DNA of 64,000 bases, taken from Candidatus Poribacteria bacterium (GTDB taxonomy: Bacteria; Poribacteria; WGA-4E; JAJDTR01). The stretch covers positions 1,952,001 to 2,016,000 of the forward strand of contig CBDCTK010000002.1 in NCBI GenBank assembly GCA_965222225.1, in the 5' to 3' direction. The notes under the pieces are model-generated. The model had not been told where the DNA came from. It did not search any database and saw only the letters and a list, made by a program, of their open reading frames with translations. Shown one piece after another: positions 19,044 to 62,214 of the stretch (its first letter is position 1; each line of letters opens with the position of its first letter). The position numbers and the translations under genes were made by a program.

Positions 19044-19298
19044 TTAGTGATTTACTTTCTAAATATATGCGGTAAGTGTTGTGCGCAGGTGCAGTTAGAA
19101 ACCGCACCTACCGGCGATTCTTGCAAGTAAAGGAAGTCGCGACCTGGAGAAGATCTCTATCGCACTCACTGTGGGATCTTCTATCGCTTTCGTTATCCAC
19201 TCAGTTGATCGTTCGCTTGATCTCCTACAAGTAATGATGGTGTGTGTTTATATTCTTGTAAGCAGAAACCCGGGTTACGTATGAATGAGGAGGAAAAG

Positions 19299-20267
19299 AT
19301 GTCATTCAGAACTAGACGCTACTTCAAGTCAGTGCTTGTGCTCTCCCTGATGTTCCAGATGCATATTGCACAAATCAGTTACGCTGCGCCTCCAGCCAAG
19401 ATTGCATTCACTTCGATGAGAGACGGAAACTATGAAATCTACGTTATGGATAGTAACGGAGGCAACCAGGTAAGACTAACGGATGACCCGGCGGTTGATT
19501 GGGATCCGACGTGGTCTCCTGACGGCGATAGGATCGCGTTTGTCTCCGGTAGAGATATTAGTTTTCGAATCTACGTGATGGATTCCGATGGACGGAATTT
19601 GATGCAACTAACAAAAGAGTCGAATGATTCGGAACCGGCGTGGTCGCCTGACGGAGGGAAGATTGCGTTCACTCGGCCCAAAGAGCGGAAAGAACAGGTT
19701 TGGGTAATGGACGCTGACGGGGGTAACCAGGTACAGTTGACGCATTTAGGGTCGAACCATTTTCCAGCGTGGTCGCCTAGCGGCAATAGATTAGCCTTCG
19801 TAACCTGGAAAAGGCACCGGGGAACTGAAATCTACGCAATGGATAGCGATGGCAACAATCAAGTAAGGATTACCCACGATTTGAGGCCTAAGAATTATCC
19901 TTCGTGGTCTCCCGACGGTCAATTGATTGCGTACAGCGCGATCAGAAACGAGGTTCAACAAATCTATGCCGTCAGAACCGATGGCAGCGGTCTGACAGAA
20001 AGACTAACGCACAACCTACCGAATAAATCAGTCCCGGCATGGTCCCCCGACGGCGACATGATTGCATACACGTTATGGAGTTCCGGCGTTCCCGCGACGA
20101 TTCACTTGATGACCCCCGATGGAGGGCACCTTAAGCAACTCAGTGCGGACCGCGGCTATGATTACGATCCCGACTGGTTTGATCCGGTGGCACCGCCTGT
20201 GTCTCCCGCCGCGAACTTTGTGACAATCTGGGGCGAGATCAAACAGCCAACATTGGAACTTCGATGA
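19299..20267 (+). CDS. TolB-like PD40 beta-propeller secreted protein 1
   Basis: Signal peptide, P.WSPDG..IAF repeats and C-terminal [15 protein letters not shown]. Confidence 0.88.
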
Positions 20268-20318
20268 TGTGTATGACGCACTTGAGAAATTTCGCTAATT
20301 TCAACCAAGGAGGAACAG

Positions 20319-21287
20319 ATGTCATTCAAAGCTAGACGATTCTTGACTGCAGCGCTTGTCATCTCCCTGCTAATCCAGATGCACATAGCCAAAAGTGGTT
20401 ACGCCGCAGGGAGACCCAAGATTGCTTTCAGCTCTACGAGAGATGGAAACAGCGAAATCTATGTTATGGATAGTGACGGAGGTAATCAGGTAAGGTTAAC
20501 GGATAATCCGGCTATTGACTCGGATCCGTCGTGGTCTTCCGACGGCAAAAGGATTGCGTTTGTGTCCAGAAGAAGTGGAGTCAGACAAATCTACGTGATG
20601 GATTCCGATGGACAGAATTTGATGAGACTGACAGAGGAAGCGGTAAATCGGGACCCGACGTGGTCTCCCGACGGCAATAAGATTGCGTACACTCGCAGCA
20701 AAGGAGGGAAGCAGGTTTGGGTAATGGATGCCGACGGGGGTAACCAGATTGAGTTAAATCAAATGGGATCGAACAGTCATCCAGCGTGGTCGCCTGATGG
20801 GGTACGAATTGCCTTCGTATCCAGTAGGGATGGGGGGGCCGAAATATACGTAATGGATGAGAACGGTAATAATCAGGAAAGACTTACCCAACACATGGCG
20901 ATTACGGGCCATCCATCGTGGTCCCCCGACGGTCGATGGATTGCGTATTCATCTCTTGACGTAGAGAAGGTTTTTCAAATCTACCTCGTGAGAGCCGATG
21001 GCGTTCCTCAAAAAAACAGACTGACACGCAAACTGCCGCACAAATATCATCCTGCATGGTCCCCGGACGGTGATGCAATCGCATACACGTCAGAGGATCC
21101 GCCCTTCATTCGTACGACGATTCACTTGATGACGGCTAAAGGAGTTTACCTGAAACAACTCGGTGAGGTCGCCGATGGATCGGATAGCGGTCCCGATTGG
21201 GTTGACCCGACAGCATGGTCGGTGTATCCAGCCACGAACTTGGTCACAATATGGGGCGGGATTAAAAAGCTAACATCGGGGCTATAG
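20319..21287 (+). CDS. TolB-like PD40 protein 2
   Basis: Same architecture; AGGAGG RBS. Confidence 0.88.
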   Translation: MSFKARRFLTAALVISLLIQMHIAKSGYAAGRPKIAFSSTRDGNSEIYVMDSDGGNQVRLTDNPAIDSDPSWSSDGKRIAFVSRRSGVRQIYVMDSDGQNLMRLTEEAVNRDPTWSPDGNKIAYTRSKGGKQVWVMDADGGNQIELNQMGSNSHPAWSPDGVRIAFVSSRDGGAEIYVMDENGNNQERLTQHMAITGHPSWSPDGRWIAYSSLDVEKVFQIYLVRADGVPQKNRLTRKLPHKYHPAWSPDGDAIAYTSEDPPFIRTTIHLMTAKGVYLKQLGEVADGSDSGPDWVDPTAWSVYPATNLVTIWGGIKKLTSGL

Positions 21288-21397
21288 GGCGACCGGCGAT
21301 CTGTATGACTGTCAGTTGTCACGGAGAGGATCTCGGTGATTCGACGATTGCCGATTGCTCGCTGCACAAAGGATATGTTTCGTGGAAGCAATGAGGT

Positions 21398-21880
21398 CGC
21401 GACCTGGAGGGAGATCTCTATGGGAGCTCTACGGGATTTCTATCGCGCTCCTTATCCAGTCGCTTGATCTATTCGCTCCCTTGATCGTTGAGCCCAACCT
21501 ACGAATATGACTGGGCAAAGCCGCATGTTTGCACCGTGCAGGGCAACGGGAATGAGATCCCTGACCTATTCCGTGCACCGGGGGCACGAAACCCGTCATC
21601 GGGAGCGGTATGATTGGGTTTTCTACTGGCATGGATGTTGCGCTGTGGCGAAGTATACACGACCATCCATTGGGCTCACGCAGGTTGCCCCGATTCCTAG
21701 GAAAAGATAGAGGGTGAGGTAATACGCTATCGCCCGGGATTCGCTATGGGAACGCTATCGCCTTCGTTAATCACTCAGTTGATCACTCGCTAATCGCTCG
21801 CTTGATTCTAATCAGTCGGTTGATCGATAGAGATCCCAAGGCGATAGTTTGTCCTACTCGTTATCCAGTCGCTTGATTTC
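21398..21880. repeat. Clusters of full and partial hairpin elements with REP remnants
   Basis: Full copies at 21440 and 21755, with fragments in both orientations. Confidence 0.85.
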
Positions 21881-22324
21881 CTCTGGAGCGCGGAGGAGAA
21901 GCGTAAGCAGATGGAGGGATTCCTATCGAGGTCCTTCCCTTGATTCCACCTTACGACGTCGGAGTGCACATGAAGAGTAACCGTGCCTGCAATGCGCAAA
22001 CTGACAGTTTGCGCTACAAAAACGGCGGTGGATGTCTAGAATCCTGTGAGTCGTAGGCGGTAAGAGAAGGGATTGGTGATTCGACGAATGCCGGTTGTTC
22101 GCTGCACAACGGATATTTTTCGTGGAAGCAATGAGGTCACGACCTGGAGGGGGAGCTCTATAGGAACTCTATCGCACTCACTATTCACTCGTTTGATCGT
22201 TCCTTTGATCCCACCCTACATAATGCTTGCGATGCGCAAACTAACAGTTTGCGGTACAGAAAAAGGTGGTGGATGTCTAGAATCTTGTAATTAGCAACTT
22301 GGGTTATCTATTACCAAGGAGGAA

Positions 22325-23176
22325 ATGATGTTATTCAAAGCTAGACGATTCGTGACCGCAGCGCTTGTCCTCTCCCTGTTTATACAGATGCAAATTGCGG
22401 CAAACGGTTACGCCTCTCGCGGAACCAAGATTGCCTTCACATGCGTGGGAGTCGACGGGAATCGCGATATTTGCGTTATGGATGGTGACGGAGGCAATGA
22501 GGTAAGACTAACGGAAGACCCAGCACGGGACGAGGGTCCGTCGTGGTCCCCCGACGGCACAAGGATTGCGTTCACTCGATTCAAAGCGTTGAAAAATCAG
22601 ATTTGGGTAATAGACGCCGACGGGGGTAACGAGGTCCAGTTAACTCAATGGGGAAAGAACTATAATCCAGCGTGGTCGCCTGACGGCAATCGAATTGCCT
22701 TCGTAGGCACCGATAGGCAAGGGGGGGCTGAAATCTACGCAATGGATACTGACGGCAGCAATCAAGTAAGGCTTACCCACGATTTGGAGGAAAAAGATAA
22801 TCCATCGTGGTCTCCCGACGGTCAACAGATTGCGTATGAAGCGAGTCGCCAAGGTGCGGTTTTTCAAATCTATGTGGTGGAAGCCGATGGCAGCGGTCGG
22901 AAAAAAAGACTAACACACGACGCACCACACAAAACGCGTCCTGCTTGGTCCCCTGATGGCGACACAATCGCATACGCTTTACGGGTTCCCGCCGTTCGTA
23001 CGACGATTCACTTGATGACTGCTAACGGAGATTACCTAAAACAACTCAGTGGGGAGCACGGTGGCGATGATACCGGTCCCGATTGGTTTGATCCGGTAGC
23101 ATGGTCTGTGTCTCCAGCAACGAACTTTGTCACTATCTGGGGCAAGATTAAAGTGCCAGCCTCGGTTCGCAGATGA
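22325..23176 (+). CDS. TolB-like PD40 protein 3 (one repeat shorter)
   Basis: Same architecture. Confidence 0.88.
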   Translation: MMLFKARRFVTAALVLSLFIQMQIAANGYASRGTKIAFTCVGVDGNRDICVMDGDGGNEVRLTEDPARDEGPSWSPDGTRIAFTRFKALKNQIWVIDADGGNEVQLTQWGKNYNPAWSPDGNRIAFVGTDRQGGAEIYAMDTDGSNQVRLTHDLEEKDNPSWSPDGQQIAYEASRQGAVFQIYVVEADGSGRKKRLTHDAPHKTRPAWSPDGDTIAYALRVPAVRTTIHLMTANGDYLKQLSGEHGGDDTGPDWFDPVAWSVSPATNFVTIWGKIKVPASVRR

Positions 23177-23224
23177 TACGCACCGCGTGCTTGAAACTTC
23201 AGCTCATTAACCAAAAAGGAGGAA

Positions 23225-24205
23225 ATGATGTCATTCAAAGCTAGACGCTTGTCTGCAGCAGCGCTTGTCGTCTCCCTGTTTATCCAGATGCAATTTGTGG
23301 CAAACGGTTACGCCTCTCGCAGAACCAAGATCGCCTTCACCTCTTGGCGTGAAGGGAATGGGGACATTTATGTCATGGATGGTGACGGGAGTAACCAGAG
23401 AAGAGTAACGGTGAATCCGGCAAGGGACGAATATCCGGCATGGTCTCCCGACGGCAAAAAGATTGCCTTTGTTTCCAATAGAAACAACGTAAACAAAGAT
23501 CACAAGCAAATCTGGGTGATCGACGCCGACGGGAAGAACCCGATTAGACTGACGGACGGGTTGGTGGACTCTTATCCGGATTGGTCGCCAGACGGCACGA
23601 AAATTGTGTACGACGCCCATCTTCATCCAGAGGAACATCATGTAGCCCCCGCCGGGATTACTGTAATGGATGCGGATGGGAACAACAAGAGACTACTTAC
23701 GCGTGAAGGCGCACATCCGACCTGGTCGCCCGATAGCAAAAGGATAGCATTTATCTCCGCAGTTGATGTCATCAGTCATGTCTTCGTGATGGATGCCGAC
23801 GGACGAAATCGGATGCAGTTAACGCATGACTTTGTGCGAAAACGTTTGCCATCATGGTCACACGACGGGAGGCGCATCGCATATGTGGGCGATAACGTGA
23901 TTTGGGTGGTGGATAGCGACGGAGAGAATCCGAGGCAACTCACGTGGCATGTTACGGAAGAACACCCTACATGGTCACCGGACAGTGGATCCCTCGCGTT
24001 TACCTCGCGTGGAAGGGATCCTGGAATTGTTGGGATTTACACGGTGGATGTAACTAACGGCGCTGTCGACGCTTTGCCACGTGATCCCGACGTCCTGAAT
24101 TACGATCCGGATTGGCTATATCCCGGAGGACTCTCCGTTTCGCCGGAGGGCAGCCGGATTACAATTTGGGGCAGGCTGAAGAATACTGTGCTCAGCCTCC
24201 GGTGA
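23225..24205 (+). CDS. TolB-like PD40 protein 4
   Basis: Same architecture; C-terminal VSPEGSRITIWGRLK. Confidence 0.88.
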   Translation: MMSFKARRLSAAALVVSLFIQMQFVANGYASRRTKIAFTSWREGNGDIYVMDGDGSNQRRVTVNPARDEYPAWSPDGKKIAFVSNRNNVNKDHKQIWVIDADGKNPIRLTDGLVDSYPDWSPDGTKIVYDAHLHPEEHHVAPAGITVMDADGNNKRLLTREGAHPTWSPDSKRIAFISAVDVISHVFVMDADGRNRMQLTHDFVRKRLPSWSHDGRRIAYVGDNVIWVVDSDGENPRQLTWHVTEEHPTWSPDSGSLAFTSRGRDPGIVGIYTVDVTNGAVDALPRDPDVLNYDPDWLYPGGLSVSPEGSRITIWGRLKNTVLSLR

Positions 24206-24850
24206 GGAGTGCGCTTGGTGGACGGTAAGAGGAGGGATAGGGGATTCGTCGGTTGCCGGTTGATCGCTGCATAACGGACATGTTTCGTGCAAATAACGAG
24301 GTCGCGACCTGGGGGGATCTCTATCGCACTCATTATCCATTCGTTTGATCGCTCCTACAAGTGATGGCGGACGGGGGAGTTCTATCGATCAACGAAGGCG
24401 ATAGGAATTCTTACTCACTGTTTATTCTTTTGAGCCCACCCTACGATTGAACAGAAATATTTGGTCAATCTTGAACTTTGGAGTGTATCTGAAATGAATC
24501 CGTGCTTGCGATGCGCAAACTAACAGATCAAGCGAGCGAATAGCGAGTAGGACAAACTATCGCCCTCCCTATCCAGTCGGTTGATCGTTTCTTTCCCGGT
24601 CAGTGGCAGGGGTTCCGTTGGGTTTCACTATGCTTCACAAGGATTGAGCGCCATAGAGCGTCAGAACTTGGGTGGAACGCCGCGCGTTCCATTGGTTGGT
24701 GCCGTTCAACCCAACCAACGAACTTCGGAGTGCACATGAAGAGTAACCGTGCCTGCAATGCGCAAACTAACAGTTTGCGGTACAAAAATCGGTGGCGGAT
24801 GTCTAGAATCTTGTAATTAGCAACTTGGGTTATCTATTACTGAGGAGGAA

Positions 24851-32404: not shown

Positions 32405-33010
32405 TCAATGAGAGGAGACAATCCGCTCTGTTGCCCACTTTATTAACGGGATGGTTAAGATTGCGACGCCGACGCCTAACAGAACGTTGCCAACGGTGAG
32501 ATAGAAAAATCTGTGCTTGTGGGTCTTGTCTCTTAATCTCCGTAGAATTAGAAACCCGACGATTGCTAAGATGCTTGCGACTATGAACTTTTGGTCGTTT
32601 GACCAAGAGTCAGTGAAGAGATGGAAGATTATCATTATTGCCGTGAACACGAAACAGCTAATTGCTACGGCGATGAGATCGTTGGGAGATATTTTTTCCA
32701 TACGCGGTGCTAATACAACCTGTCGAAAAAGGCGCTGACAAAGATGGCTGCGTTCGTTCCAGTGACAGCCGCTGCGATTGCGGCGTAATAAAAGAGATGT
32801 TTATAACGTTGGTAACTAATCGCCCCAAACCCTAGAATGCCGCGGAATGTGAGGGCATGTCCGATAATGTGGGAGGTATCAGTGTCGGTATTCGCCGTGG
32901 TGATTGGAGCAGATACGCCCACTATGTTCACAACGGCGATTATAACCCGTATACGTATAAGGAAATCTGGCGCTTTATCTGGGGAGTTCATTGAAGTCAG
33001 AGCGAACTTA
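32405..33010 (-). pseudogene. Degraded membrane-protein gene, copy B
   Basis: ORFs 32405..32701 and 32710..33045 appear to be halves of one gene. Confidence 0.6.
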
Positions 33011-33350
33011 CCATGTTGCGTCAACGATGAACGATGCCAGTGCATTAGAAATGACGGTCAAGCGTTGTTACGTTGAAAACTATATTCAGCACGCAAAGCA
33101 TACCATACTCACGCAACAGAATTATCAAGAATGTCCGCACACAAGAGAGACAATGTTTGTTTTCGTTTCAACGAGGTTGTGGATGACGCGGTTGTCGGAG
33201 AAAACCGGCTCTCAGCGATGCGGATAGTATAGCGCGCCTCGTGCGTTATGTAAAAACTTACCTTTCGGCGGTAATGGCGTGGAATCCGGGGATCGCTGCG
33301 TACGGCTGCAGGGCACAATCGGTCTCGGAGAATGGCGTTGACGGGTTAAA

Positions 33351-34035
33351 GAATTCCTATCGATCAACTGACCGAATAGGGAAGGCGATAGGAATTCTTG
33401 CTCGCTGTAAAATCTCTATCGCACTCGCTAATCGCTCGCTTGACTGGCCGCGACCGGGAGAGGGAGCTCTATCGCAGTCATTATCCATTCCTTTGATCCT
33501 ACAAGAAATGGTGGGCGGCGCCCACCCTACAGGAGCTCTATCGCGCGGGATTTGCCGCGGGAATCGGTGCGGACAGAGTCGGGGCAAGATGCCCCTCCTA
33601 CGGTGTATTTGTTTGTATCCAGCGAGAAGAACGGCGGTGCAGGATGCGCACCTTACAACGGCTAAAGGGCGGTGCGGGGGAACCTTAGGGGATTTCTATC
33701 GCACGGGATCTACTATCGCCCTCACTATTCGTTCGGTTGATCGTTATCCATTCGTTTGATTCCCTCCTACAAATTGGTTAATCGCCCGTTGTCCAGTCGA
33801 AAAAGGACATTCTTTGTCTGGTAACTCGATTGTCATCTGTGCGATAATATGACACTGATAAGGTATTTGGACTACCCCGGATTGGTCAGATTTTCTACCT
33901 CAAGGGATTTGCTATAGGAACCCTATCCGGACTTGCTATCGCACGGGATTTTCTATCGCGGTCACTAATCGGTCGGCTGAGGGGTCGCGACCGGGAGGTC
34001 GCTCCTACAAGAAATCATTCATTCGCTTGATCCTT
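33351..34035. repeat. Dense cluster of hairpin elements and GTAG REPs
   Basis: Full copies at 33362 (reverse), 33416, 33469, 33713 and 33953; intact REPs at 33577-33601 and 33983-34008. Confidence 0.88.
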
Positions 34036-34054
34036 CCTAGGAGAACCTGACACA

Positions 34055-34996
34055 ATGTATAGCGCTGCAAAAATCTTTGAACAGATTCCGAACTTCCCGT
34101 CCTGTCATGCGTCAACGATTGCGGAGATGCCCGACGGAGAGCTGCTTGCCGCATGGTATGCCGGATCGCGAGAAGGGGCGAAAGATGTGGCGATCTTTAC
34201 CTCCCGACGGACATACGGGGGTGAACGCTGGATGCAGCCGGAAATGGTTGTGAACACTCCGAATTGCTCGGAAGGCAACCCTGTCTTGTTTGTCGATGCG
34301 AACCGTCAGATCTGGCTGTTCTACGTTACGATGTATGGCAACCATTGGAAACAGTGCAAGATGTATTACCAGAAGTCGAGCGCGATGGGAAATAGTTGGG
34401 ATGAGAGAGGTGTTCTCCGCGATGAGTTGGGGTGGATGACGCGCAACAAACCGCTCTATCTCTCAAACGGCGAAATCTTGCTGCCGGTCTATGATGAACG
34501 CAATTGGCATTCAATGGTGATGATTTCCGGCAATGGCGGCGAGACATGGAACACGTATGGAGATTTGTCGAGCCCGAAGGGCGTCATCCAGCCAACCGTT
34601 GTTCAGCGGGATGACGGTAGTTTGCTGATGCTAATGCGCAGTCGGGATGGCGAGATTTGGCGTTCAACCTCCAATGATTTGGGACAGAGCTGGGAGGCGG
34701 CACACCCAACGGATCTGCCGAATCCCAACTGCGGAGTTGATATGGCGCGCTTGCACAATGGAAACATCGCTCTCGTTTACAATGACACACGGCGTGGGCG
34801 AACACCTCTGACAGTCGCGCTATCTATCGACGAAGGGGAAACGTGGGGATACAAACAACATCTCGAAATCGAGGAGGGAGAATACTCCTATCCCGCCATT
34901 ATTCAAGCCCAAGACGGCGGTATCCATATCACCTATACCTACCGACGCATCAGCATCATGCACGTTGAAGTCGATGAGGCGTGGATTCGCGACTAA
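34055..34996 (+). CDS. BNR-repeat sialidase-like protein
   Basis: Asp-boxes S.NGGETW, S.DLGQSW, S.DEGETW; HASTI and EYSYP. Confidence 0.85.
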   Translation: MYSAAKIFEQIPNFPSCHASTIAEMPDGELLAAWYAGSREGAKDVAIFTSRRTYGGERWMQPEMVVNTPNCSEGNPVLFVDANRQIWLFYVTMYGNHWKQCKMYYQKSSAMGNSWDERGVLRDELGWMTRNKPLYLSNGEILLPVYDERNWHSMVMISGNGGETWNTYGDLSSPKGVIQPTVVQRDDGSLLMLMRSRDGEIWRSTSNDLGQSWEAAHPTDLPNPNCGVDMARLHNGNIALVYNDTRRGRTPLTVALSIDEGETWGYKQHLEIEEGEYSYPAIIQAQDGGIHITYTYRRISIMHVEVDEAWIRD

Positions 34997-35087
34997 GAGC
35001 CTGTTTTGAATAATCGGTGGCAAAGCCATTTGTGGTCATTTGTAGGGAGTTTTTCATGTTTTTATTGTTGTCTGCTGCGTACCTGTA

Positions 35088-35365
35088 GGATCTCTATCGC
35101 AATGGAATCTCTATCGCGGTCGCTATTTGCTCCCTTGATCCTTCCTTAATCAGTCGGTTGATCCTCATTCAGTTGCTTGATGGTCGCGACCGGGAGGTCG
35201 CTCCTACGGGATAGCTTTAGGCGGGGCAAGATGGGATCTCTATCGCACTCGCAGAAAGGCTGGTAAAATCTCAATCAGAATCTTCTATCGCCATCACAAT
35301 GGGATCTCTATCAAGAATTCCTATCGGGATTCTCTATCGCACTCGCTATCCGCTCGCTTGATCAT
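35088..35365. repeat. Hairpin-element cluster
   Basis: Full copies at 35111 and 35334, with many GATCTCTATC fragments. Confidence 0.88.
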
Positions 35366-36146
35366 CCGCGACGGGCACGTATTCCGGAAAGACCTTCGGA
35401 TAACGGCGTCCGGTTGAGACCTGACGCGTTGCCGCATCAATATAGCATACACTGAATGCTCGCCGCGGACGATTCGTGGTGTTGACCTCCGAGCGGTGCA
35501 ACGTCCAGTTGTGGAGCAGCGCGACCTCTCCCATCTCCATCTCCAGATAAAGCCGCTTCTCGTTCGGTGCGTGGATCGCTCGCTCCTCGGGAGATAACAA
35601 ATCGCCTTTTTCGGGGATGGGGCTTTTGTGCGACCCCGGAATAATTTGCAGACAGCCGTTGGCGACGCTCGTCGCATCCATCGCGGTCCAGATTGTCACC
35701 TTTGGCGGAATGCTCAACCTCCAGCCGCCTGCGCCATCTTGATGCCAATTGATGGGGATCCCTCGCCCCGCAGGCTTGTTGAAGAACATCGTCCGAAAGG
35801 CGGAGATCCCCTCGCCGATAATCTTCCGTGTAATGTCCCGAAACAGCGGGTGTTGTATGTAAGGGAGAAACAATGGGTCCTGTTCAAGGTCTTGAACTTT
35901 TCGGTAGTTTAGCGTAGAACCCTTCAACACCTTTGTCTGCTTCGATAATTCCTGATGGCCGGCTGACGGGCATAACTGCATGAGCATGTTGTCGTAGCGA
36001 ATCTTCCCCAGCATGATATCATCAATACGCTGGCAAAGTGCTTTAATCTCTTCGTCCGGTGCGACTTTGCCCAAACGTACATAGCCCTGTTCCTGAAATG
36101 TCGCAAGCTCGTCGTTAGTCAAGATGGGACCGTGCAGCTTTGTCAT
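35346..36146 (-). CDS. Phytanoyl-CoA dioxygenase (PhyH) family
   Basis: WHQD, NGCL.IIPGSH, LHRSE.N and RRA motifs. Confidence 0.9.
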   Translation of the reverse strand: MTKLHGPILTNDELATFQEQGYVRLGKVAPDEEIKALCQRIDDIMLGKIRYDNMLMQLCPSAGHQELSKQTKVLKGSTLNYRKVQDLEQDPLFLPYIQHPLFRDITRKIIGEGISAFRTMFFNKPAGRGIPINWHQDGAGGWRLSIPPKVTIWTAMDATSVANGCLQIIPGSHKSPIPEKGDLLSPEERAIHAPNEKRLYLEMEMGEVALLHNWTLHRSEVNTTNRPRRAFSVCYIDAATRQVSTGRRYPKVFPEYVPVADDQASG

Positions 36147-36319
36147 CGTAGCGCCTCCTGAGAGCGTATGAGGGATATTTGGGTGTATCTACGGGAACGT
36201 GTGGAGTTGGGTTTCGCGGTGCTCTTTGGGATTTCTATCATTTGCTTGATTCCGCCTTACAACCGGCTGTTGAAAAAGGAGCGGGCGCGGAGACCGCGCC
36301 CCTACGGGGGAGGCACGAT

Positions 36320-36547
36320 CGGTCGGTCAGTTGATGATCGCGACCGGGAGGGAGGATTTACTATCGCCCTCACTATCCGTTCGCTTGATCGCTCCTACAG
36401 GGCGGGTTTAGCTATGGGATTGCTATCGCACTCGCTATCCGCTCGGTTGATCGATAGAGATCTTGATAGCAAAGAAGCAGCTGACTGATAGGGAACAAGA
36501 GTTACTATCGCGTTCGTTATCCACTCACTTGATCGCGCGCTTGATCC
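36320..36547. repeat. Hairpin-element cluster
   Basis: Full copies at 36361, 36423 and 36505. Confidence 0.88.
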
Positions 36548-36565
36548 CGTGTGTTCAATTCGGCG

Positions 36566-38443
36566 CTAGCGGGGGAAGTCCCACAACAGTATCGTGCCGT
36601 CGAGGCCCGCACTCACCAGTGTGCTGCCGTCCGAGCTAAAAACGAGGCTGCGGACCCACTCACTGTGTGCCTTCAGTGTCTTCCGGTGCGCACCGGTGTC
36701 GGCGTCCCAAAAATCGATGCTGCCGTCCGTGCCCCCAGTTGCTACTTCGCCGCCATTCGGGGTGAAAACCACACTCATGGCACCCATTTCCGGTTGAAGC
36801 GTGTGGCGATTCGCGCCTGTCTTGGTGTCCCAGAGCCGCACGGTTTTGTCGCCGCTAACGCTTGCCAGCGCGCCGCCGTCCGGACTGAAGGCGACGCTAA
36901 CGATGTCCAACTCATGCCCCTTCAGTGTGTGTAGAGGGGTGCCCTCTGCCGTATCAAATAGACGAATCGTATAGTCGTCGCTACCGCTCGCCAGCAGTTT
37001 ACCATCGGCGCTGAACGCGAGACTGGTGCGAACCGGTCGATATATGGTCATCGGTACACGTGCGGTTTCCCATTTGAGCGATTTCAGTTCCGCGCCTGTT
37101 TTGGCGTCCCACAGCGTGGCGGAACTGACGCCATCTCCGCTGGCGAACATGGAGCCGTCGGAACTGTATGCAAAGATAACGTCATCTCCGGCATCGGGTA
37201 CCAAGGTTCTCAGTTCGCTGCCTGTCATAACATCCCAGAGTCTAATGCTGTGAAAATCGTCTCCCCTCACCAATGTTTGTCCATCTGCGCTAAAGACGAA
37301 ATTGGGCGACAGGGACATATCGTGCAGAAACGAACGCTTGTATGCCCCCGTGACAGCATCCCACACACGAATGGGGGATCTTCCGCCCGCACTTGCCAGC
37401 GTCGTGCCATCCTGGCTGATAGCCACGAAATCGAACGAGTCGAGATGCCCTCCCATGCTACCCAAGTGTGCGCCTGTTGCTGTTTTCCACAGGTTGATGG
37501 TGGTACCCGCGGTCGCCATTCGCGTCCCATCGGGGCTGAACGCAATCGCGATAATCCTATCCGTATGCCTTCGCAGCGTTCGCAGAAGTTCCCCCGTGGC
37601 GGCATCCCACAATCGGGCAGAATTGTCGCTGTACCCGCACGCCAGCGTGCTTCCATCCGGGCTGAATGTCATGCACCCGACCCAAGTCTCCCAATCCTCC
37701 AGTTGACGCAGATGATTGCCGGTGCCGACATCCCACAAACGAATACTATCGCGTCCACTCCCACTTGCCAGCATCGATCCGTCCGGGCTAAATGCAACGC
37801 TCGAAATGTACTCCGTATGTCCTACCAGGGCGCGCAGATGTTCTCCCGTTGACGCATCCCATACGTCAATGTTGTTGTTGGCAAAACTCCAACTTGCCAG
37901 CATTGTGCTATTCGGGCTGAATACCGCACCTACGCCCCTAGACGACATATCTTCCTGTGTCCGCGCATCGAATGACTGTTCCTCCTCACCCGTCAAGGTA
38001 TCCCAAAAACGGACGGTATTGTCAAAATCTACGCTTCCCAGTGTGGAGCCGTCACGACTAAAAATCACGTCGATGATTCTCGACGTGTGACCCTCCAACG
38101 TGCGCAGATGCGCGCCTGTTGAAGCATTCCAGAAACGAATGGTTCCGTCCGAACTTCCACTCGCCAATACACTCCCATCCGGGCTATAGGCTAAGCACCA
38201 GACAACACCTGCATGGGCAGCGAACAGGGCGGCTTCCTTACGGTTCGATGTGTCGTATATCCAGATCCCGATGCCTGTTCCCACCGCGAGCCGAGTGCCA
38301 TCGGGCGAATACTGTATTTGGGTAATCTTACCGTTTCCAATGCGCAATCTAGCGCCGTCGGGCAGTCCCGATTGAGGGAATTCTTGGGCGGCGCCCAGTG
38401 TGGAGAGCACAAAAAGTGATAGTAAGGTCAAAAATATCTTCAT
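36566..38443 (-). CDS. Secreted WD40-repeat protein
   Basis: Signal peptide, GLPDGARLRIGNG motif and WD repeats. Confidence 0.9.
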   Translation of the reverse strand: MKIFLTLLSLFVLSTLGAAQEFPQSGLPDGARLRIGNGKITQIQYSPDGTRLAVGTGIGIWIYDTSNRKEAALFAAHAGVVWCLAYSPDGSVLASGSSDGTIRFWNASTGAHLRTLEGHTSRIIDVIFSRDGSTLGSVDFDNTVRFWDTLTGEEEQSFDARTQEDMSSRGVGAVFSPNSTMLASWSFANNNIDVWDASTGEHLRALVGHTEYISSVAFSPDGSMLASGSGRDSIRLWDVGTGNHLRQLEDWETWVGCMTFSPDGSTLACGYSDNSARLWDAATGELLRTLRRHTDRIIAIAFSPDGTRMATAGTTINLWKTATGAHLGSMGGHLDSFDFVAISQDGTTLASAGGRSPIRVWDAVTGAYKRSFLHDMSLSPNFVFSADGQTLVRGDDFHSIRLWDVMTGSELRTLVPDAGDDVIFAYSSDGSMFASGDGVSSATLWDAKTGAELKSLKWETARVPMTIYRPVRTSLAFSADGKLLASGSDDYTIRLFDTAEGTPLHTLKGHELDIVSVAFSPDGGALASVSGDKTVRLWDTKTGANRHTLQPEMGAMSVVFTPNGGEVATGGTDGSIDFWDADTGAHRKTLKAHSEWVRSLVFSSDGSTLVSAGLDGTILLWDFPR

Positions 38444-38609
38444 CTCAATACCTCCTACATTTTATGGATAATGGGAGATTGTTAAATCCCCGACTGCTCA
38501 ATACAAAGACTCAAAGGCTGGTGCACAGGGGAACTCTATCGCGCTCATTATTCATTCGCTTGATCGTTATTCACTCAGTTGATCGGTCGTGTTGTGCATG
38601 GATGTTGGG

Positions 38610-39107
38610 TCAGAAACGGGGAGCGGTGAAACGAATTAGCAGACCTATTCCGACTACGACAACTAGCACCCACAGCACTATATTGCCTGTCTCTCTATCA
38701 CTTTGCTCGCGCCGCTTGTGCATTTCAATCTCCGTCCTGAGGTTGGCCATTTCCACCTCTGCATCCGCTAGTGCAAGTTTAAGTTTGGCATTCTCTTCCC
38801 TCAATTGCTTTATTGTCCTGCCCTGATTCTGTTCGCCATCTTGACCGGGTAAGCGTTTATCAGGTACCGTGGATATGGGTGTCTCAACCTTGGCGATGGT
38901 TTCAGGTATGATGTCTCCAATCTTTGGCTCGGACTGCACGTCGGCTAGCAGAACGAGACTCCAGGTGCCCAAGTAGGTGAACACACAAAACACAACAAGG
39001 ATTAGCATGAATCGCGAAGGGTACCCCTGAACGTGCATAATGTTGTTTCCTCGCGAAATACTCAGTCGCGAGACATGGGGAGAGCCTCGTATTCGTGTCG
39101 TTTTCAT
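38610..39107 (-). CDS. Hypothetical membrane protein with a coiled coil
   Basis: N- and C-terminal TM segments around a heptad region; start uncertain. Confidence 0.55.
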   Translation of the reverse strand: MKTTRIRGSPHVSRLSISRGNNIMHVQGYPSRFMLILVVFCVFTYLGTWSLVLLADVQSEPKIGDIIPETIAKVETPISTVPDKRLPGQDGEQNQGRTIKQLREENAKLKLALADAEVEMANLRTEIEMHKRREQSDRETGNIVLWVLVVVVGIGLLIRFTAPRF

Positions 39108-39200
39108 AGGTTAACCCGGTTTTTGCGATTTGTCAACTGACACACCAGCATAGTCAGACACAAGTCATGTTGTATGTGTCGGTCGCTATTCATTCCCTTA

Positions 39201-39459
39201 GAGCCTGCTTGAAAAATAGATGTCAAAGCCATTCTGAAGCTGTTGAGTGCTATAATCTGTCGGTCCGCTGGGGCTTAAGTGCGTGGGGTTTCGGCGTTTC
39301 TACACACCTTCAAGATCTCTATCGCACTCGCTAATCGCTCGGTTGATCCCACTCTGGGGCTTTTAGATGCTGGTGCCCTGTGCGCACCCTACAAGAGCCC
39401 TGATGAAAACCTTGGTTTTGAGGCGAAATGTGCGACAAAATGAATTTTCAAGCAGGCTC
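39201..39459. mobile_element. MITE with nested REP and hairpin element
   Basis: TIRs gagcctgcttgaaaa / ttttcaagcaggctc with TTA flanks. Confidence 0.65.
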
Positions 39460-39479
39460 TTAATGGCGCGCTACAAAAA

Positions 39480-40005
39480 CTCAAAAGCTGGTGCAGGATC
39501 TCTTTCGCAGTCATTGTTCATTCCTTTGAACGGTGCCCACCCTCCATCTTGCTCGTTTGAGGATGGTGGGCGGGTGATTTCAGCGCTACGCGAAGGATGC
39601 TAGTCGCGAAGCAGATTGTTACACGGTGGTCAGCGGGGCAAGGAGATCTCTATCGTCCTCGCTATCCGCTCGGTTGATCCCCGCCTACAGGGACGGATAG
39701 AGTATATCTGTTTGTATCTTCGGTATCCAATGAAGTTGGGTTTCGCTGTGCTCAACCCAACCTACGTCGTTGATTGGGTGTCTACCACATTGTGCTCCTC
39801 GCGAGCGCTTGAGAGAAACATGTACCCGTTCTATCGACATGGCGCACCTCCCGAGCCAGGAGTGGAGACGGTACGGGGTCGGAGGGATTTCTATTGGGGG
39901 TTCTATCCCAGTCACTATTCGCTCCATTGATGGTCGCGATTCGGAGATCGCTCCTACGGGGCGGGATTTACTATCGCCCTCCCTAATCAGTCGGTTGATC
40001 CCCAT
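39480..40005. repeat. REP/hairpin-element cluster
   Basis: Full copies at 39502, 39650, 39903 and 39971. Confidence 0.85.
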
Positions 40006-40158
40006 ACGGGGGATGGGATTTCGCGCCACTTTTGCTTGACTGAGACGGATTATAGTGCCATACTTCTATGGTACGGGAAACGGGAAGGATATCTGCCACG
40101 CCTAGGGGGCGTGACAGGATTCTTGAGGAGTTTCAGATAAAAAACAGTGAGGTGATTA

Positions 40159-41355
40159 ATGATGTTCACAAGTCGGATCGCAACTTTGGTTATTGTATGC
40201 CTGATTGCAGCCCCAGTTCTCGTGTTGTCCTCCTGCGATGAACTCGTGTCTATTTTGTCCGGGGGAGACATTGTCGAAGCGCCTGATGCAGTTTCTGTCG
40301 GCGTGGTTCTGCCGCGGACGGGCTATCTCGGTCCGGGCGAATTTGGTCCCGGCGCGCTTGTTATGGAGAACGGTTTTAACTTGGCGCTCGAAGAGATTAG
40401 CTACTCGCAACCCGAGAAGGCAATCCTGAAGTTCATCATTGAGGACGATCGAAGCACCGTAGACGGCGCGGTTGCCGCATTCAACACACTGATACATCAA
40501 GACAAAGTGCCGGTAATTCTCGGAGTTTGGACGTCAGAGGTTGCGCAGACCGTCTTTTCGATTGCGCAGGAGAATCGGGTTGTGGCTTTCAGTCCTGTCG
40601 TGGTAGCAGGCGGGTTGACCGAAATTGGCGACTTTATTTTTCGCGCGGCGCAACCCACGGATGTGCTTATTCCCGCGGGGGTTAAGGTGACGCAGGAGCA
40701 ACTCGGCTATCAACGGGTGGCGACAATTGCCGACTCTGACGATCATTTCGCCCGGACCAGCAGCGAAGAGCTAGAGCAGACGCTAAGTGATTCCGGCGTC
40801 GAGATATTGCAAGCCGAGAACTTCCAATCAGGTGAAACAGACTTTAACGCACAACTTACTCGCATAAAGGACGCTGATCCGGAGGCGATCTTCGTGTCAG
40901 CTCAACAGATTGAGACGATTCTAATCTTTAAGCAGGCTCGCGCACTTGGCATTACCTCCGATGTTCCGTTTATCACTGCGTCGCTGTCGTCGGACGACAT
41001 AGAAAGTGCCGAGGGGGCTGCCGAGGGAGCAATTACTTTTGCGTCATGGAGCAGCAAAACGGACACGCCGGGAAACCAAGCGTTTGTCGAGAAATACCGC
41101 GCCCGGTACGGACGGGAGCCTAGCGTATGGTCTGCGCTGTCGTATGCGTCCGTTCATATCCTAGCCGAAGCCGTCGCGAATGCCGAATCGACGGATTCAG
41201 TCGGGATTCGAGACGCTTTGGCGAATATTAGCGATTTTGACACCGTTTTGGGGCAGTTTTCGTTTAATGAGGTCGGCGACGGGGCTTACGATCCAAAGGT
41301 ACTGATCGTGAGGGATGGTAGGCTTGAGGCGTTCGGAGAAGGCGGCACGCCGTAG
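40159..41355 (+). CDS. LivJ/LivK-like ABC substrate-binding lipoprotein
   Basis: Lipobox LSSC; VGVVLPRTG, IEDD.S, DFIFR, TDFNAQLTRI and GQFSF...GD. Confidence 0.88.
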   Translation: MMFTSRIATLVIVCLIAAPVLVLSSCDELVSILSGGDIVEAPDAVSVGVVLPRTGYLGPGEFGPGALVMENGFNLALEEISYSQPEKAILKFIIEDDRSTVDGAVAAFNTLIHQDKVPVILGVWTSEVAQTVFSIAQENRVVAFSPVVVAGGLTEIGDFIFRAAQPTDVLIPAGVKVTQEQLGYQRVATIADSDDHFARTSSEELEQTLSDSGVEILQAENFQSGETDFNAQLTRIKDADPEAIFVSAQQIETILIFKQARALGITSDVPFITASLSSDDIESAEGAAEGAITFASWSSKTDTPGNQAFVEKYRARYGREPSVWSALSYASVHILAEAVANAESTDSVGIRDALANISDFDTVLGQFSFNEVGDGAYDPKVLIVRDGRLEAFGEGGTP

Positions 41356-41639
41356 CGGAACGTGTTAAGTGGAGAGTGACGAGTGGAGAGTGAAACCTAA
41401 CACCTCAATCCAGGCCTAGAGTTGATTGTAAAGTTGGGTTTCACTAGATTTGAAAGGGTTCTAAACGGAATCGTGTTCCTGGAAGGGAGTGTGAGGACGG
41501 GTGTTTATGACTGCAGCCGTTCAACCCAACCTACGTGTTGACTACAACTTTCCGATAAGAGCCTGTTTGAATAATCGGTGGCAAAGCAATTTCGGTCACT
41601 TTGGGCGCGGCTTTTTCATGCTTTTGTGGTAGCCTGCTA

Positions 41640-42066
41640 CATACCTGTAGGATCTCTATCGCACTCACTATCCGTTCGTTTGATCCCCGCAGGGGCTTTA
41701 GATTTGTTGTGTTGTCTTCGTTCTATAAACCTTTCGCACCTCCGGTGCTTACAAAGGCTGGTGGGCGGGGGACCTCTTTCGCACAGGATCTACTATCGCC
41801 CTCCCTAATCAGTCGGTTGATCCCAACCTACGGACCTGATGCCTATGGGGGGCGGGGCAAGAAGATCTCTATCGCACTCACTATCCAGTCGATTGATCCC
41901 CTCCTACGAGTTAGATGAGGTAAGTTCTATGGGATCTCTATCGATCAACCGACTGTATAGAATCAACTGAGCGGATGGCGAAGGCAATAGCAAATCCTGC
42001 TCATTATCCATTCCCTTGTTCGCACGTTGTGGCCGTGAAAGGTTGGTGCGCGATGCGCACCCTACA
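41640..42066. repeat. REP/hairpin-element cluster
   Basis: Full copies at 41656, 41793 and 41869; intact REP at 42045-42065. Confidence 0.85.
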
Positions 42067-42067
42067 A

Positions 42068-43240
42068 CTAAAACGCCTCGAACGCTCCGTCGCGCGCAAT
42101 CAGAACGATTGGGTCATACACCGCGTCGCCGACGGCTTCGAAAGAGAAGCTGCCGAGAACGGTCTCAAAGTCGCTTGTGCCAGCCAACGCCTCCCGTATC
42201 GCACCCGAATCGGTTGACCCAGCCTCAGAAATCGCATTCACTAAGAGTTTCACGGACGTGTATGACAATGCGCTAAAAACCGAGGGCGCCGCGTCGTATT
42301 TCGCGGTGTAGTTCCGGACAAACGCCTGATTCCCCGGAGTTTCCGCCGTACCGGACCAAGCGGTAAACGTAATTGCCCCCTCCGCGGCTGTGCCCGCCTC
42401 CTGCACTTCGCCCAAACTCAGCAACGGTACAATTAAAGGTACATCGTCGGGAATCCCGACTTCGCGCCCCTGAACGAGTATCTTCGTCTGGTCAAACGAG
42501 TTCGCCGCGACAAGAACCGCCTCCGGATTCAAGTCCCGAATCCGCGTTAACTGGGCACGCAGATCTGCCTCGCGGGTAGTGAACGTCTCTGTCGTCAAAA
42601 TATCAACGCCAATCGCCGTGAGCGTCTCCGAATACACGTCATTGGTGCTGCGGGAGAACAGATCGAGGGTGTCAACTATAATTGCGACGCGCTGATACCC
42701 CAGTTTTTCTTGTGTAAGGTGTACACCAGGTGGGATCAGTTTGTCCACGGTCAGGTTCACGCGAAAAACAAAGTCCCCAAGCGCGCTCAGTCCTTGCGAC
42801 GCGGATGTCGGCGCAATTGCCACAATTTGATTCTCTTCCGCCACCGGGAAGGCTATCTCCGTTAGGGTCAATGTGGCGGGGCCCAGAAGCGCGACCACCC
42901 CGTCCTCGTGGATCAGCTTGTTGTATGCCGCAATTGCGCCCTCTGGTGTGCTCTTATTATCCTCAAGGATGAAGCGGATCTGCGGCGGCGCGAGCTGTGT
43001 GCTGTTAATCTCGTCGCGCGCCAAATAGAAGCCGTTTAGATACCTGATTATGTCCGGGTCGTCGGGGCCGTCGACGAAGGCGCCGGACTGCGGCATCACC
43101 ACGCCGATGAGGAGTTCATCGGGCAACGGCGTCGGCGCTTCGCCGCCGGAGAGAACCGACACCAATTCCTCACAGCCGCAAAGCCCCAAGATGAGCGCGG
43201 CGCTTATAACCAATAAACAGATTTTCTTGATAGGATTCAC
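42068..43240 (-). CDS. LivJ/LivK-like ABC substrate-binding lipoprotein (paralogue)
   Basis: Same motifs as 40159..41355. Confidence 0.88.
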   Translation of the reverse strand: MNPIKKICLLVISAALILGLCGCEELVSVLSGGEAPTPLPDELLIGVVMPQSGAFVDGPDDPDIIRYLNGFYLARDEINSTQLAPPQIRFILEDNKSTPEGAIAAYNKLIHEDGVVALLGPATLTLTEIAFPVAEENQIVAIAPTSASQGLSALGDFVFRVNLTVDKLIPPGVHLTQEKLGYQRVAIIVDTLDLFSRSTNDVYSETLTAIGVDILTTETFTTREADLRAQLTRIRDLNPEAVLVAANSFDQTKILVQGREVGIPDDVPLIVPLLSLGEVQEAGTAAEGAITFTAWSGTAETPGNQAFVRNYTAKYDAAPSVFSALSYTSVKLLVNAISEAGSTDSGAIREALAGTSDFETVLGSFSFEAVGDAVYDPIVLIARDGAFEAF

Positions 43241-43296
43241 TATGTTGGGCCTCCTTAATTCATTGCAATTTGTTGTAGGAATGAAACATATGCATC

Positions 43297-43575
43297 GTAG
43301 GTGAGGGGACGACTCGTTCCCCCTGTGAACGCGAGTATTTTATCCAACTCGGCGACATAATTCAAGCCCGTTGCGAAGCCTTGGGGCGCTAATCTGCCGA
43401 GTTGCCCTGTTACGTTCCCGGTTCCGCTTGCGTCTGATGGCGGGCTACTGTTAAACGGTAGCCGTGATGGCAGCGTTTCTTGGCGCAGAAGTTGTCCACA
43501 TTCAACGCACCGGATATGGTCTAACCCGCTTACCGGGGGTTCGGCGGTGCTACCGGATTGCGGCGACCGAGACAT
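43297..43575. ncRNA. Candidate structured non-coding element
   Basis: Multiple stems; no family recognised. Confidence 0.3.
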
Positions 43576-43711
43576 GAGGATAGGGACTATTCGTGCGGTT
43601 ACACGGAATTTGGGGGTTGGTTGGGGGGATTTTTTGAGGGCGTAGGCGGCATGCGATCGGCATGAAGTGACCCCGAAAATCTCGTCAGTTTGCTTGAAAT
43701 TTCAATATATC

Positions 43712-51907: not shown

Positions 51908-52093
51908 TGAGCGCGATAGCAAGTCCCGCGCGATAGAAAGTTTTGATAGATATCCTCTCGCCCACCATCACCTCAGACTCGGTAGGAGCGATTTCCCGAT
52001 CGCGACCGATTGACCGACTGAATAAGGATCAAATGACCGGTTAGGGAGTGCGATAGGGATCTTTTCGCGATAGAGAATATTGATAGAGATCCC
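51890..52093 (+). repeat. Hairpin-element/REP cluster in the opposite orientation
   Basis: Full copies at 51890-51919 and 52027-52056; REP at 51982-52007. Confidence 0.88.
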
Positions 52094-62033: not shown

Positions 62034-62214
62034 CGCGCAGGATTTTCTATCGGAGTTCTATCGCACTCATTATTCATTCGCTTGATCCCTCCTTATCCGG
62101 TCGGTTGATCTATAGAAATCCCGTGCGATAGAGTTCCCTTTTCAAGAAAGAAAACTCGGTTTCAGGGCAAATTGGGCTACTACAAATAGATCTTCAATCA
62201 GGCTCTTAAGGTAC

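Follow-up and report, generated by a model that had tools for sequence, protein, structure and literature searches.

How does an intergenic spacer come to hold a string of partial copies of a single short repeat? The question is raised by positions 21724-21878 of a 64,000-nucleotide stretch of DNA (the window) from a Candidatus Poribacteria sponge symbiont, whose genome (5.70 Mb on two contigs) is designated G000. The array is composed of pieces of a 37-bp repeat unit and lies in the spacer 21288-22324, which is flanked by tandem paralogues encoding PD40 beta-propeller proteins. In the original prediction such loci were patchworks, each the product of repeated additions to a single site, and were attributed to a low-processivity polymerase or reverse transcriptase (RT) of telomerase-like or end-joining-like type, or else to successive transfers of single-stranded DNA. 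We find that most patchworks are older copies split by a newly landed copy, mostly after unit position 11, 16 or 17, and that the arrays later change as 11-nt head modules slip and short stretches between internal ATC/TC repeats are deleted. The repeats concerned are likely to be lineage-restricted, very small, non-coding and probably mobile elements that insert into hairpin DNA, including their own earlier copies, with slippage and small deletions following.

The complete unit, 37 bp long, opens with a 14-nt head (GGGATYTCTATCGC) and closes with the tail TTGATC; the 17 nt between them follow the pattern NN-TC-NN-TATYC-NN-TC-NN. A pattern search found 19 strict full units in the window and 561 in the genome; the 561 genomic copies comprise 477 distinct sequences and 163 combinations of the NN dinucleotides. 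In the window, the head pattern with up to two mismatches matched 42 times (mean 1.00 and largest value 4 in 100 shuffles) and the tail pattern with up to one mismatch 69 times (mean 24.4 and largest value 38 in shuffles). When the genome was scanned with a position-weight matrix (PWM), a threshold of 18 bits gave 2956 non-overlapping matches and one of 20 bits gave 2246; the reversed sequence, used as a null, gave 549 and 130. Full-type matches were mostly intergenic, with 649 of 748 lying outside crude open reading frame calls that cover 82% of the genome.

Mutual information among the full copies was concentrated at four pairs of NN positions (1.15 for positions 19-27, 0.91 for 16-30, 0.68 for 15-31 and 0.45 for 20-26; next value 0.17), and the covariation at these four pairs is Watson-Crick. 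Covariation was counted formally in a set of 71 distinct copies, drawn partly from the window and partly from other Poribacteria records, with 500 shuffles as the control. Paired cells amounted to 91.1% versus 73.3% in the shuffled sets, cells changed on both sides numbered 112 versus 41, and the covariation score was 0.480 versus 0.155; none of the 500 shuffles reached the observed value in any of these measures, and slid controls scored no higher than 0.112. Pairing between the four NN dinucleotides gives two helices of 2 bp each. Between these lies a conserved 2x2 mismatch, in which an invariant TC stands opposite TC and which on the complementary strand reads as tandem GA/AG. The stem comprises four covarying and three invariant pairs. 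Unpaired positions are also strongly conserved, including two GATC sites and the TC/TC mismatch. On the head-to-tail strand A-C wobbles are common (266) and G-T wobbles rare (33), which shows that it is the complementary strand that tolerates wobble and most likely folds.

At 21724-21878 the pieces of this unit are arranged as follows, with bit scores taken from the PWM scan.

21724-21735, plus strand: outer head fragment, approximately unit positions 5-16, with NN = CC; read as the left half of the oldest unit
21736-21747, plus strand: second head, positions 1-11 and one extra base; read as the left half of the middle unit
21748-21784, plus strand: innermost complete 37-bp unit (pattern match; 45 bits, positions 1-37)
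21785-21807, plus strand: tail, positions 15-37, with intact hairpin (33 bits, profile match 14-36); read as the right half of the middle unit
21808-21825, plus strand: tail, positions 20-37 (24 bits); read as the right half of the oldest unit
21826-21847, minus strand: inverted head pieces, joined to the preceding tail through a shared GATC (junction type TTGATCGATAG)
21856-21878, plus strand: further tail, positions 15-37 (33 bits, profile match 15-36)

The order proposed originally for 21725-21880 (two heads, a full copy, two tails, an inverted head and another tail) is the same as that found here. As judged from the sequence, 21724-21825 reads as a three-layer nest of an old, a middle and an inner unit, with the inverted head and the further tail beside it. 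Specifically, the CC at positions 15-16 of head 21724-21735 is complementary to the GG at positions 30-31 of tail 21808-21825, and head 21736-21747 belongs to the split class in which the head stops at position 11 and the tail resumes at 14/15, with 22 cases genome-wide. The NN dinucleotides of tail 21785-21807 differ from those of the inner unit, in agreement with the earlier statement that adjacent fragments carry different NN variants. The junction motif TTGATCGATAG occurs 55 times in the genome, against once for a reversed control.

Misassembly had been put forward as a possible source of such arrays. We compared 1.1 kb of the window with contigs from runs X1, X3, X5 and X9 (four studies, all short-read); X5 is an RNA library and X1 may be the source sample. 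Joints between repeat copies in these contigs stem from other loci and were disregarded, except for indels at arrays. A 539-nt contig of X1 spans 21450-21988 with 0 differences, and a 447-nt contig of X5 spans 21450-21896 with 2 differences. Contigs of X9 span 21646-21834 and 21819-21988 with 0 differences, and contigs of X3 span 21691-21813 (1 difference) and 21838-22106 (0 differences). Since all or part of 21725-21880 recurs in the contigs of four studies, the array is not a misassembly. Two related arrays in the same spacer were less constant.

21413-21486, plus strand: paralogous array of period 11, made up of three head modules of 11 nt, the remainder of a full unit and a single tail (positions 20-37)
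22151-22210, plus strand: two head modules, a unit and a short tail; covered by the run contigs

Small indels are present in other populations at 21422-21430. At 22150, contigs of X3, X5 and X9 with unique flanks carry an extra 11-nt head module, whereas the X1 contig equals the window; in X9 this extra module repeats its neighbor exactly, in tandem. The gain or loss of this module shows that slippage reshapes arrays after their formation. The only other array changes among the four runs were four indels of 1-5 nt.

Genome-wide, the unit matches cluster into 1859 loci, 573 of which hold 2-12 fragments, whereas each of the 549 null loci holds one fragment. Of the 55 loci in the window, 25 are multi-fragment. 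Lone full units account for 380 loci in the genome. The order of the fragments is strongly preferred: head before full unit in 135 cases and after it in 10, full unit before tail in 202 and after it in 31, and head before tail in 160 and after it in 19. Adjacent fragments (n = 1097) lie on the same strand in 960 pairs and are inverted in 137. Fragment ends cluster, which had been suggested as a check, and nearly every partial piece retains one true end. Specifically, there are 5'-truncated tails with an intact 3' end (8-37, 197 cases; 14-37, 137; 20-37, 78; 17-37, 77), 3'-truncated heads with an intact 5' end (1-11 to 1-17) and complete matches spanning 1-37 (433), 2-37 (141) or 3-37 (85), although part of this clustering comes from the information content of the profile.

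Heads and tails around a full unit are not independent of each other. Among 410 clean full units, 71 are flanked on both sides, by an upstream head and a downstream tail; 34 are flanked by a head alone, 62 by a tail alone and 243 by neither. The presence of a head is coupled to that of a tail (odds ratio 8.2, p = 4e-18); random positions show abutting head and tail flanks at 0.7% and 0.4%. The point at which the head ends matches that at which the tail starts (chi-square 50.1, p = 3.5e-10), the main classes of head end and last missing tail position being 11/13 (22 cases), 17/19 (11) and 16/16 (8). Pairing across the insert was scored in 37 arrays (74 pairs) in which the head reaches positions 15-16 and the tail holds positions 30-31. 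Outer head positions 15-16 and outer tail positions 31-30 were Watson-Crick in 41 of the 74 pairs, A-C in 16, G-T in 3 and mismatched in 14, whereas control pairings of outer halves with halves of the inner unit were Watson-Crick in 18 and 25 of 74. The inner units pair in 66 of 74. Because the NN of the outer head pairs with that of the outer tail across the insert, the two are halves of an older unit that was split by a newer one. The outer, split units have since decayed somewhat.

These data bear directly on the mechanism proposed originally. Telomerase-like synthesis, in which a low-processivity polymerase or RT adds partial copies end to end in aborted rounds, would explain the many 5'-truncated tails with an intact 3' end. 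It would also explain several additions at one site, and the nests confirm that there were several. However, such stutter would not make the flanking head and tail the halves of one hairpin, which they are, and it is therefore not supported. Nor does it predict 3'-truncated heads with intact 5' ends on the opposite side of the full copy. The array at 21725-21880 is moreover the same in four studies, with length changes confined to the 11-nt module and the 1-5 nt indels described above, and no template RNA or RT was linked to the units. Searches of Rfam at gathering scores gave 0 matches across the whole window, and at E values up to 10 nothing fell on the units of 21300-24700; the sole match nearby, to RT-12, was non-significant (18.7 bits where the gathering score is 44.2; E = 6.1) and lay only beside units. 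We regard this explanation as extremely improbable. The alternative offered at the same time, successive single-strand transfers at one site, comes close to the nested insertion observed, with the enzymatic step conjectural.

The remaining arrays named originally are likewise strings of partial copies, as are all eight loci for which this had been claimed.

33689-33760, plus strand: head (1-16), inner unit and tail (17/19-36); a nest of the 16|17 class
33903-33974, plus strand: three head fragments, then a unit with a shortened tail; 12 nt between two ATC repeats are missing relative to G005
35087-35181, plus strand: one head, one full unit and two tails, where the G005 spacer contains a single unit
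35233-35363, plus strand: several head fragments and a full unit at 35327-35363 (pattern and profile matches)
41931-42021, mixed strands: one head that adjoins a pair of inverted tails and is followed by a direct tail (profile matches)
52013-52093, minus strand: two heads, a full unit (52027-52061) and a tail
61999-62138, mixed strands: two inverted tails, a direct full unit (62052-62087) and tail, and two inverted heads (profile matches)

G005 is the closest genome found, with coding DNA approximately 84-94% identical to the window. The PD40 genes on either side of spacer 21288-22324 belong to a large tandem family, which made its orthology unusable across the genus; region 33000-43600 was compared with G005 instead. 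All six unit-bearing spacers compared differ in structure between the two genomes. In 33600-34060 the unique spacer sequence aligns with few mismatches, whereas the embedded arrays are split at different points, have different numbers of pieces and carry a different inner NN (CC..GG in one genome, GG..CC in the other). The counterpart of 33689-33760 in G005 is itself a nest, with another split point and another inner NN.

One alternative is local tandem duplication, in which head and tail modules multiply by slippage and then drift, without insertion. The period of the modules (11 nt for heads, 18-23 nt for tails), the presence or absence of the 11-nt module between populations with otherwise identical flanks, the identity of the X9 copy to its neighbor and the 12-nt deletion between ATC repeats relative to G005 are all in its favor. 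The original prediction had held that neighboring fragments are not slippage copies of each other and had named tandem duplication with drift as the process that would overturn it; slippage did occur at 22150, and the statement holds for the nests, which duplication cannot explain. Indeed, the coupling of heads to tails, the matched break points and the pairing of NN across the inner unit largely refute duplication as the main cause. The NN of neighboring tails are unrelated and yet internally complementary, so that drift would have to include many compensatory double changes, and units are also found within other repeats that have empty copies. We consider duplication without insertion very improbable.

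The surroundings of the locus have repetitive features of their own. Window positions 19242-24205 carry PD40 (TolB-like) beta-propeller paralogues in tandem, with 70-80% DNA identity, and far larger arrays of them exist in related genomes. A conserved leader of about 75 nt (21966-22050 and 22225-22300) precedes successive PD40 paralogues on their 5' side and recurs before many paralogues across the genus; this leader is the site of the weak, non-significant RT-12 match (18.7 bits, E = 6.1). Elsewhere in the window, 83-654 and 2176-2406 contain 126-bp (42-codon) tandem repeats, 74-84% matching, which probably encode repeats of a propeller-type protein.

Insertion is also evident outside the unit's own arrays. 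For 54 of 224 solitary units an empty paralogous site exists elsewhere in the genome. The hosts are mostly hairpin repeats of other families, including repetitive extragenic palindromic sequences (REPs) tagged with GTAG and a CCTGTCGCCCC-loop-GGGG repeat, and the unit sits in or beside the host loop in one orientation relative to the host repeat. The bases that it replaces are GC, TC, TGC, CGC, TTGC or ATGC, all of which end in C and resemble the end of the unit. The target loss is 2-4 bases as scored, or 0-3 if the last one to three bases of the unit are credited to the target. At one REP site all seven inserted units differ in NN, and two further host sites show 6 NN combinations in 11 units and 10 in 18; the varied NN at these three sites indicate separate insertion events. 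At a fourth site one NN is common to 10 of 13 units, which indicates that the whole composite was copied. For the CCTGT...GGGG repeat we found about 33 empty-like matches, and a CCTGT-plus-unit pattern gave 50 matches, most of the 45 listed ending in the same GGGG hairpin.

GTAG-tagged REP hairpins of several families are present at window positions 33975-34008 and 35183-35210 (here as a hairpin followed by CCTAC) and in the flanks of many units. Units often occupy the loops of such REPs, and empty copies of the REPs are common. A dispersed repeat of up to about 260 bp, with 57 blastn matches in the genome and also present in relatives, covers 39190-39470 and has a unit inside it at 39312-39348.

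The orientation of the units is related to the composition of the surrounding DNA. With units masked, the head-to-tail strand coincides with the locally G-rich strand at 706 of 997 single-orientation loci (p = 2e-40), and at 457 of 605 loci where the absolute GC skew is at least 0.02. This orientation is independent of the direction of the flanking genes; between co-directional genes, 209 units have the same and 234 the opposite direction. That orientation follows GC skew and ignores genes suggests a single-strand step that is linked to replication.

A nested arrangement could also arise by copy-choice, a form of template switching in which the nascent strand, held up at a hairpin repeat during replication or repair, pairs through a few bases with a distant unit, copies it and returns, with no dedicated transposase. 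This would fit the variable target loss and the resemblance of the lost bases (TC, ATC-like, TGC, TTGC, ATGC) to the 3' TTGATC of the unit, the choice of hairpins (REP loops and the unit's own stem region) as targets, and an orientation tied to skew and not to genes. Junction microhomology, which had been suggested as a point to check, points the same way: 122 of 133 full-to-tail junctions share 1-2 nt (C or TC), short as these overlaps are, and inverted junctions share an ATCGAT palindrome as their core (CTATCGATCAA, 55 occurrences genome-wide against 1 for the reversed string). In the palindromic composite at 33350-33397 both arms carry the same rare head variant, and copy-choice would also be consistent with the failure to find a cognate enzyme among 31 genomes. 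On the other hand, the inserted ends are very constant (1-37, 2-37 and 3-37, as counted above), which is more typical of ends defined by an enzyme. The seven units of different NN at a single REP site imply a site preference beyond 1-3 nt of homology, and copy-choice alone gives no reason for stem complementarity to be kept in the inserted copies (66 of 74). We judge copy-choice unlikely overall, but it is a live rival for the chemistry of insertion.

In most patchworks a new unit has landed inside an older one, leaving the old head on its 5' side and the old tail on its 3' side, and repeated rounds give head-head-full-tail-tail nests. Copies may spread at the replication fork, with single-stranded DNA as the intermediate. 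A trans-acting protein would recognize the hairpin, and if only copies with pairing stems were copied, complementarity would be kept while the stem sequence drifted. The first candidate for the enzyme is a Y1 (HUH) transposase.

Transposase genes were sought in 31 genomes with Pfam Y1_Tnp, the NCBIfam model for REP-associated tyrosine transposases (RAYTs) and a 157-residue IS200-like protein, and their flanks and inverted repeats were inspected. No RAYT type among the 31 genomes matches the distribution of the unit cleanly. The intact gene for the 157-residue protein, an IS200/IS605-type Y1 transposase (NCBIfam 65.8 bits, cut-off 55), lies at G000:C2:3080255-3080728 on the minus strand. It is flanked in inverted orientation by the CCTGTCGCCCC-loop-GGGG repeat, which holds the 37-bp unit in this genus; next to homologues of the gene in two other genera the flanking repeat is empty. 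For one Y1 gene family of the genus, units in inverted orientation were found beside the gene at no fewer than 9 of 17 loci, compared with 39 of 4392 random genes; the units seem to flank these genes because they sit inside the REPs that do so.

A RAYT gene with an in-frame TAG lies at G000:C2:3088913-3089326, and a 73-residue remnant of another at G000:C2:3560325-3560519, both with units nearby. Window positions 41550-41700 and 34996-35086 hold a further repeat, about 110-150 bp long and with the CCTGT... repeat at its end; blastn matches it 80 times in the genome, and it may be a miniature derivative of an IS200-like element. The units themselves do not appear to be the termini of a larger element, as 203 head...tail pairs spaced 150-6000 bp apart showed no preferred length and the short ones were neighboring arrays.

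The family is narrowly distributed. All ten genomes of the genus contain 280-761 core matches. One genus of another family has 111-126 copies, which lack the first seven head bases, in each of four genomes (G012, G015, G021 and G027). Among the rest of the 151 genomes sampled in the phylum there are 13 copies in one (G132), one or two in three and none in the remainder. A scan of public genomes gave at least 80 loci, and all of the matches listed were Poribacteria records. Occurrence in two genera of two families could reflect horizontal spread or repeated loss.

Alternatively, the arrays might be functional sites whose architecture is maintained by host selection, either signals for transcript processing or sites bound by a protein (a nucleoid protein, a methylation-dependent one or one that binds RNA), with mobility secondary or absent. 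Conserved unpaired positions, including the two GATC sites and the TC/TC (GA/GA) mismatch, as well as the covariation and the intergenic placement would be natural in that case; the locus is also present in RNA-library run X5, which does not show transcription. Selection of this kind is hard to reconcile with the lack of an orientation bias relative to neighboring genes (209 vs 234), with array structures that differ between species although the adjoining unique spacer is conserved, with the destruction of older hairpins that nested insertion entails, with the absence of the family from most genera of the phylum and with the absence of matches to Rfam families. A host function as the main explanation is improbable.

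Several observations weigh against mobile repeats that home to hairpins. The predicted folding of single units, as DNA or RNA, is no more stable than that of shuffled sequences (12 folds, z scores from -1.02 to +1.50), and the covarying structure was returned only by the RNA-parameter fold of the complementary strand, in two of three units. The argument for the hairpin therefore comes from its covariation, and a stem so weak by nearest-neighbor energies implies, on these models, a protein partner. No cognate transposase could be tied to the unit in the 31 genomes searched with the three models; G000 in particular is without a high-scoring RAYT type, its best RAYT match (133.9 bits) being interrupted by an in-frame TAG. 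Over the 1.1 kb compared between populations, for which contigs hide rare variants, no whole unit was found to be present in one and absent from another. The full units that have only a tail (62) or only a head (34) are accommodated by nesting only through decay, the detection threshold or slippage. Fragment boundaries partly reflect the information content of a profile that was built from copies picked with our own search pattern.

The strand preference and the target sites are a further difficulty. The folding, complementary strand lies for the most part on the C-rich strand. By the usual convention this is not the lagging-strand template that IS608-type elements use, and the IS608 model is not matched in this respect. 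A variable loss of a few target bases, together with the likeness of the lost bases to the 3' end of the unit, is unlike known HUH transposases and recombinases and fits microhomology-guided copying equally well. Indeed, the variable target loss and the single GA/AG-mismatched mini-hairpin argue against the classical footprints of HUH, DDE and serine or tyrosine recombinases. It is conceivable, although we have more doubt than confidence here, that the unit is a mobile DNA of 33-37 nt with no coding capacity, inverted ends or target duplication, which homes to hairpins (its own stem and REP loops) via single-stranded DNA at the fork by a chemistry that matches no described transposition, its stems being kept purely by selection for copying.

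How very short repeats such as REPs and small dispersed repeats (SDRs) multiply is still poorly understood, and the 37-bp family offers unusually clean internal evidence. Covarying stems, nest halves that can be re-paired, repeated independent hits in REPs that have empty copies and a replication-linked bias make it a testable case for the structure-directed insertion of DNA of about 35 nt. A mobile element of 33-37 nt would, if real, be among the smallest mobile DNAs known. The arrays are the fastest-changing parts of the spacers between the two genomes compared and could serve as strain markers. For annotators, the stutter in the spacers of these metagenome-assembled genomes is real sequence and not assembly noise.

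We found no description of a 37-bp family in Poribacteria in the literature searched. REPs and their RAYTs, including REPs tagged with GTAG or CGTC, are treated in Di Nocera et al. 2013 (PMC3733652). The unit resembles a REP in being short (20-40 bp), intergenic, hairpin-bearing, lineage-specific and present in hundreds of copies. It has the palindrome of a REP in the form of four covarying pairs, with a predicted stability no better than shuffles, but its stem is limited to these four and the three invariant pairs. The consensus has no GTAG or CGTC tag on either strand, and the GTAG tags nearby belong to host REPs. Units do flank Y1 genes in inverted orientation, as expected of a REP/RAYT system, yet they do so inside those genes' own REPs. 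In REPINs (REP doublets forming hairpins; Bertels and Rainey 2011, PMC3116915), the replicating unit is an inverted doublet of two REPs; the present units are mostly single or in direct nests, with 137 inverted pairs among 1097 adjacent pairs and 380 lone full units.

Miniature inverted-repeat transposable elements (MITEs) are larger (70-300 bp or more, compared with 37 bp); the ends of the unit, GGGAT.. and ..TTGATC, are not inverted repeats, and filled and empty sites differ by a loss of bases and not by a target-site duplication. In the bacterial interspersed mosaic elements (BIMEs) of Escherichia coli, REPs of opposite orientation alternate with fixed linkers. Loci of the 37-bp family are similarly mosaics of a few short modules in regular order, but they consist of heads, a full copy and tails on one strand and are produced by nesting. 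IS200/IS605 elements share with the unit a mismatch-bearing hairpin as the likely recognition element, the absence of target duplication and a strand-linked orientation (706 of 997 loci, where it is skew and not replication direction itself that was scored); a replication-strand bias of their single-strand transposition was reportedly described by Ton-Hoang and colleagues in 2010. However, the unit has one hairpin and not one at each end, its target loses a few varying bases whereas they insert 3' of a fixed tetranucleotide that is kept intact, its best-folding strand lies on the C-rich strand and no cognate TnpA could be assigned to it. IS1397 and ISKpn1 are full-length, protein-coding insertion sequences that target REP hairpins and make target duplications. 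The 37-bp unit likewise enters the loop region of REP hairpins in one orientation, but the inserted DNA is 33-37 bp long and codes for nothing.

By the features that define tagged REPs, REPINs, MITEs and IS200/IS605 elements, the unit belongs to none of these, and its closest known relatives in kind are REPs and the SDRs of heterocyst-forming cyanobacteria. SDRs, reportedly described by Elhai and colleagues in 2008, are said to be 21-27 nt long, with several families forming hairpins, and to be inserted in one another and in other repeats; their mobility is said to have been argued from filled and empty sites, with no enzyme identified. By this account the 37-bp family is similar in being very short, non-coding, of high copy number and nested in its own copies and in other repeats, and is set apart by its length (37 bp versus 21-27 nt) and by its occurrence in Poribacteria and not in cyanobacteria. 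As far as is known to us, the two-helix covariation around a tandem mismatch, the matched split points, the complementarity across the insert and the orientation with GC skew are new relative to SDRs.

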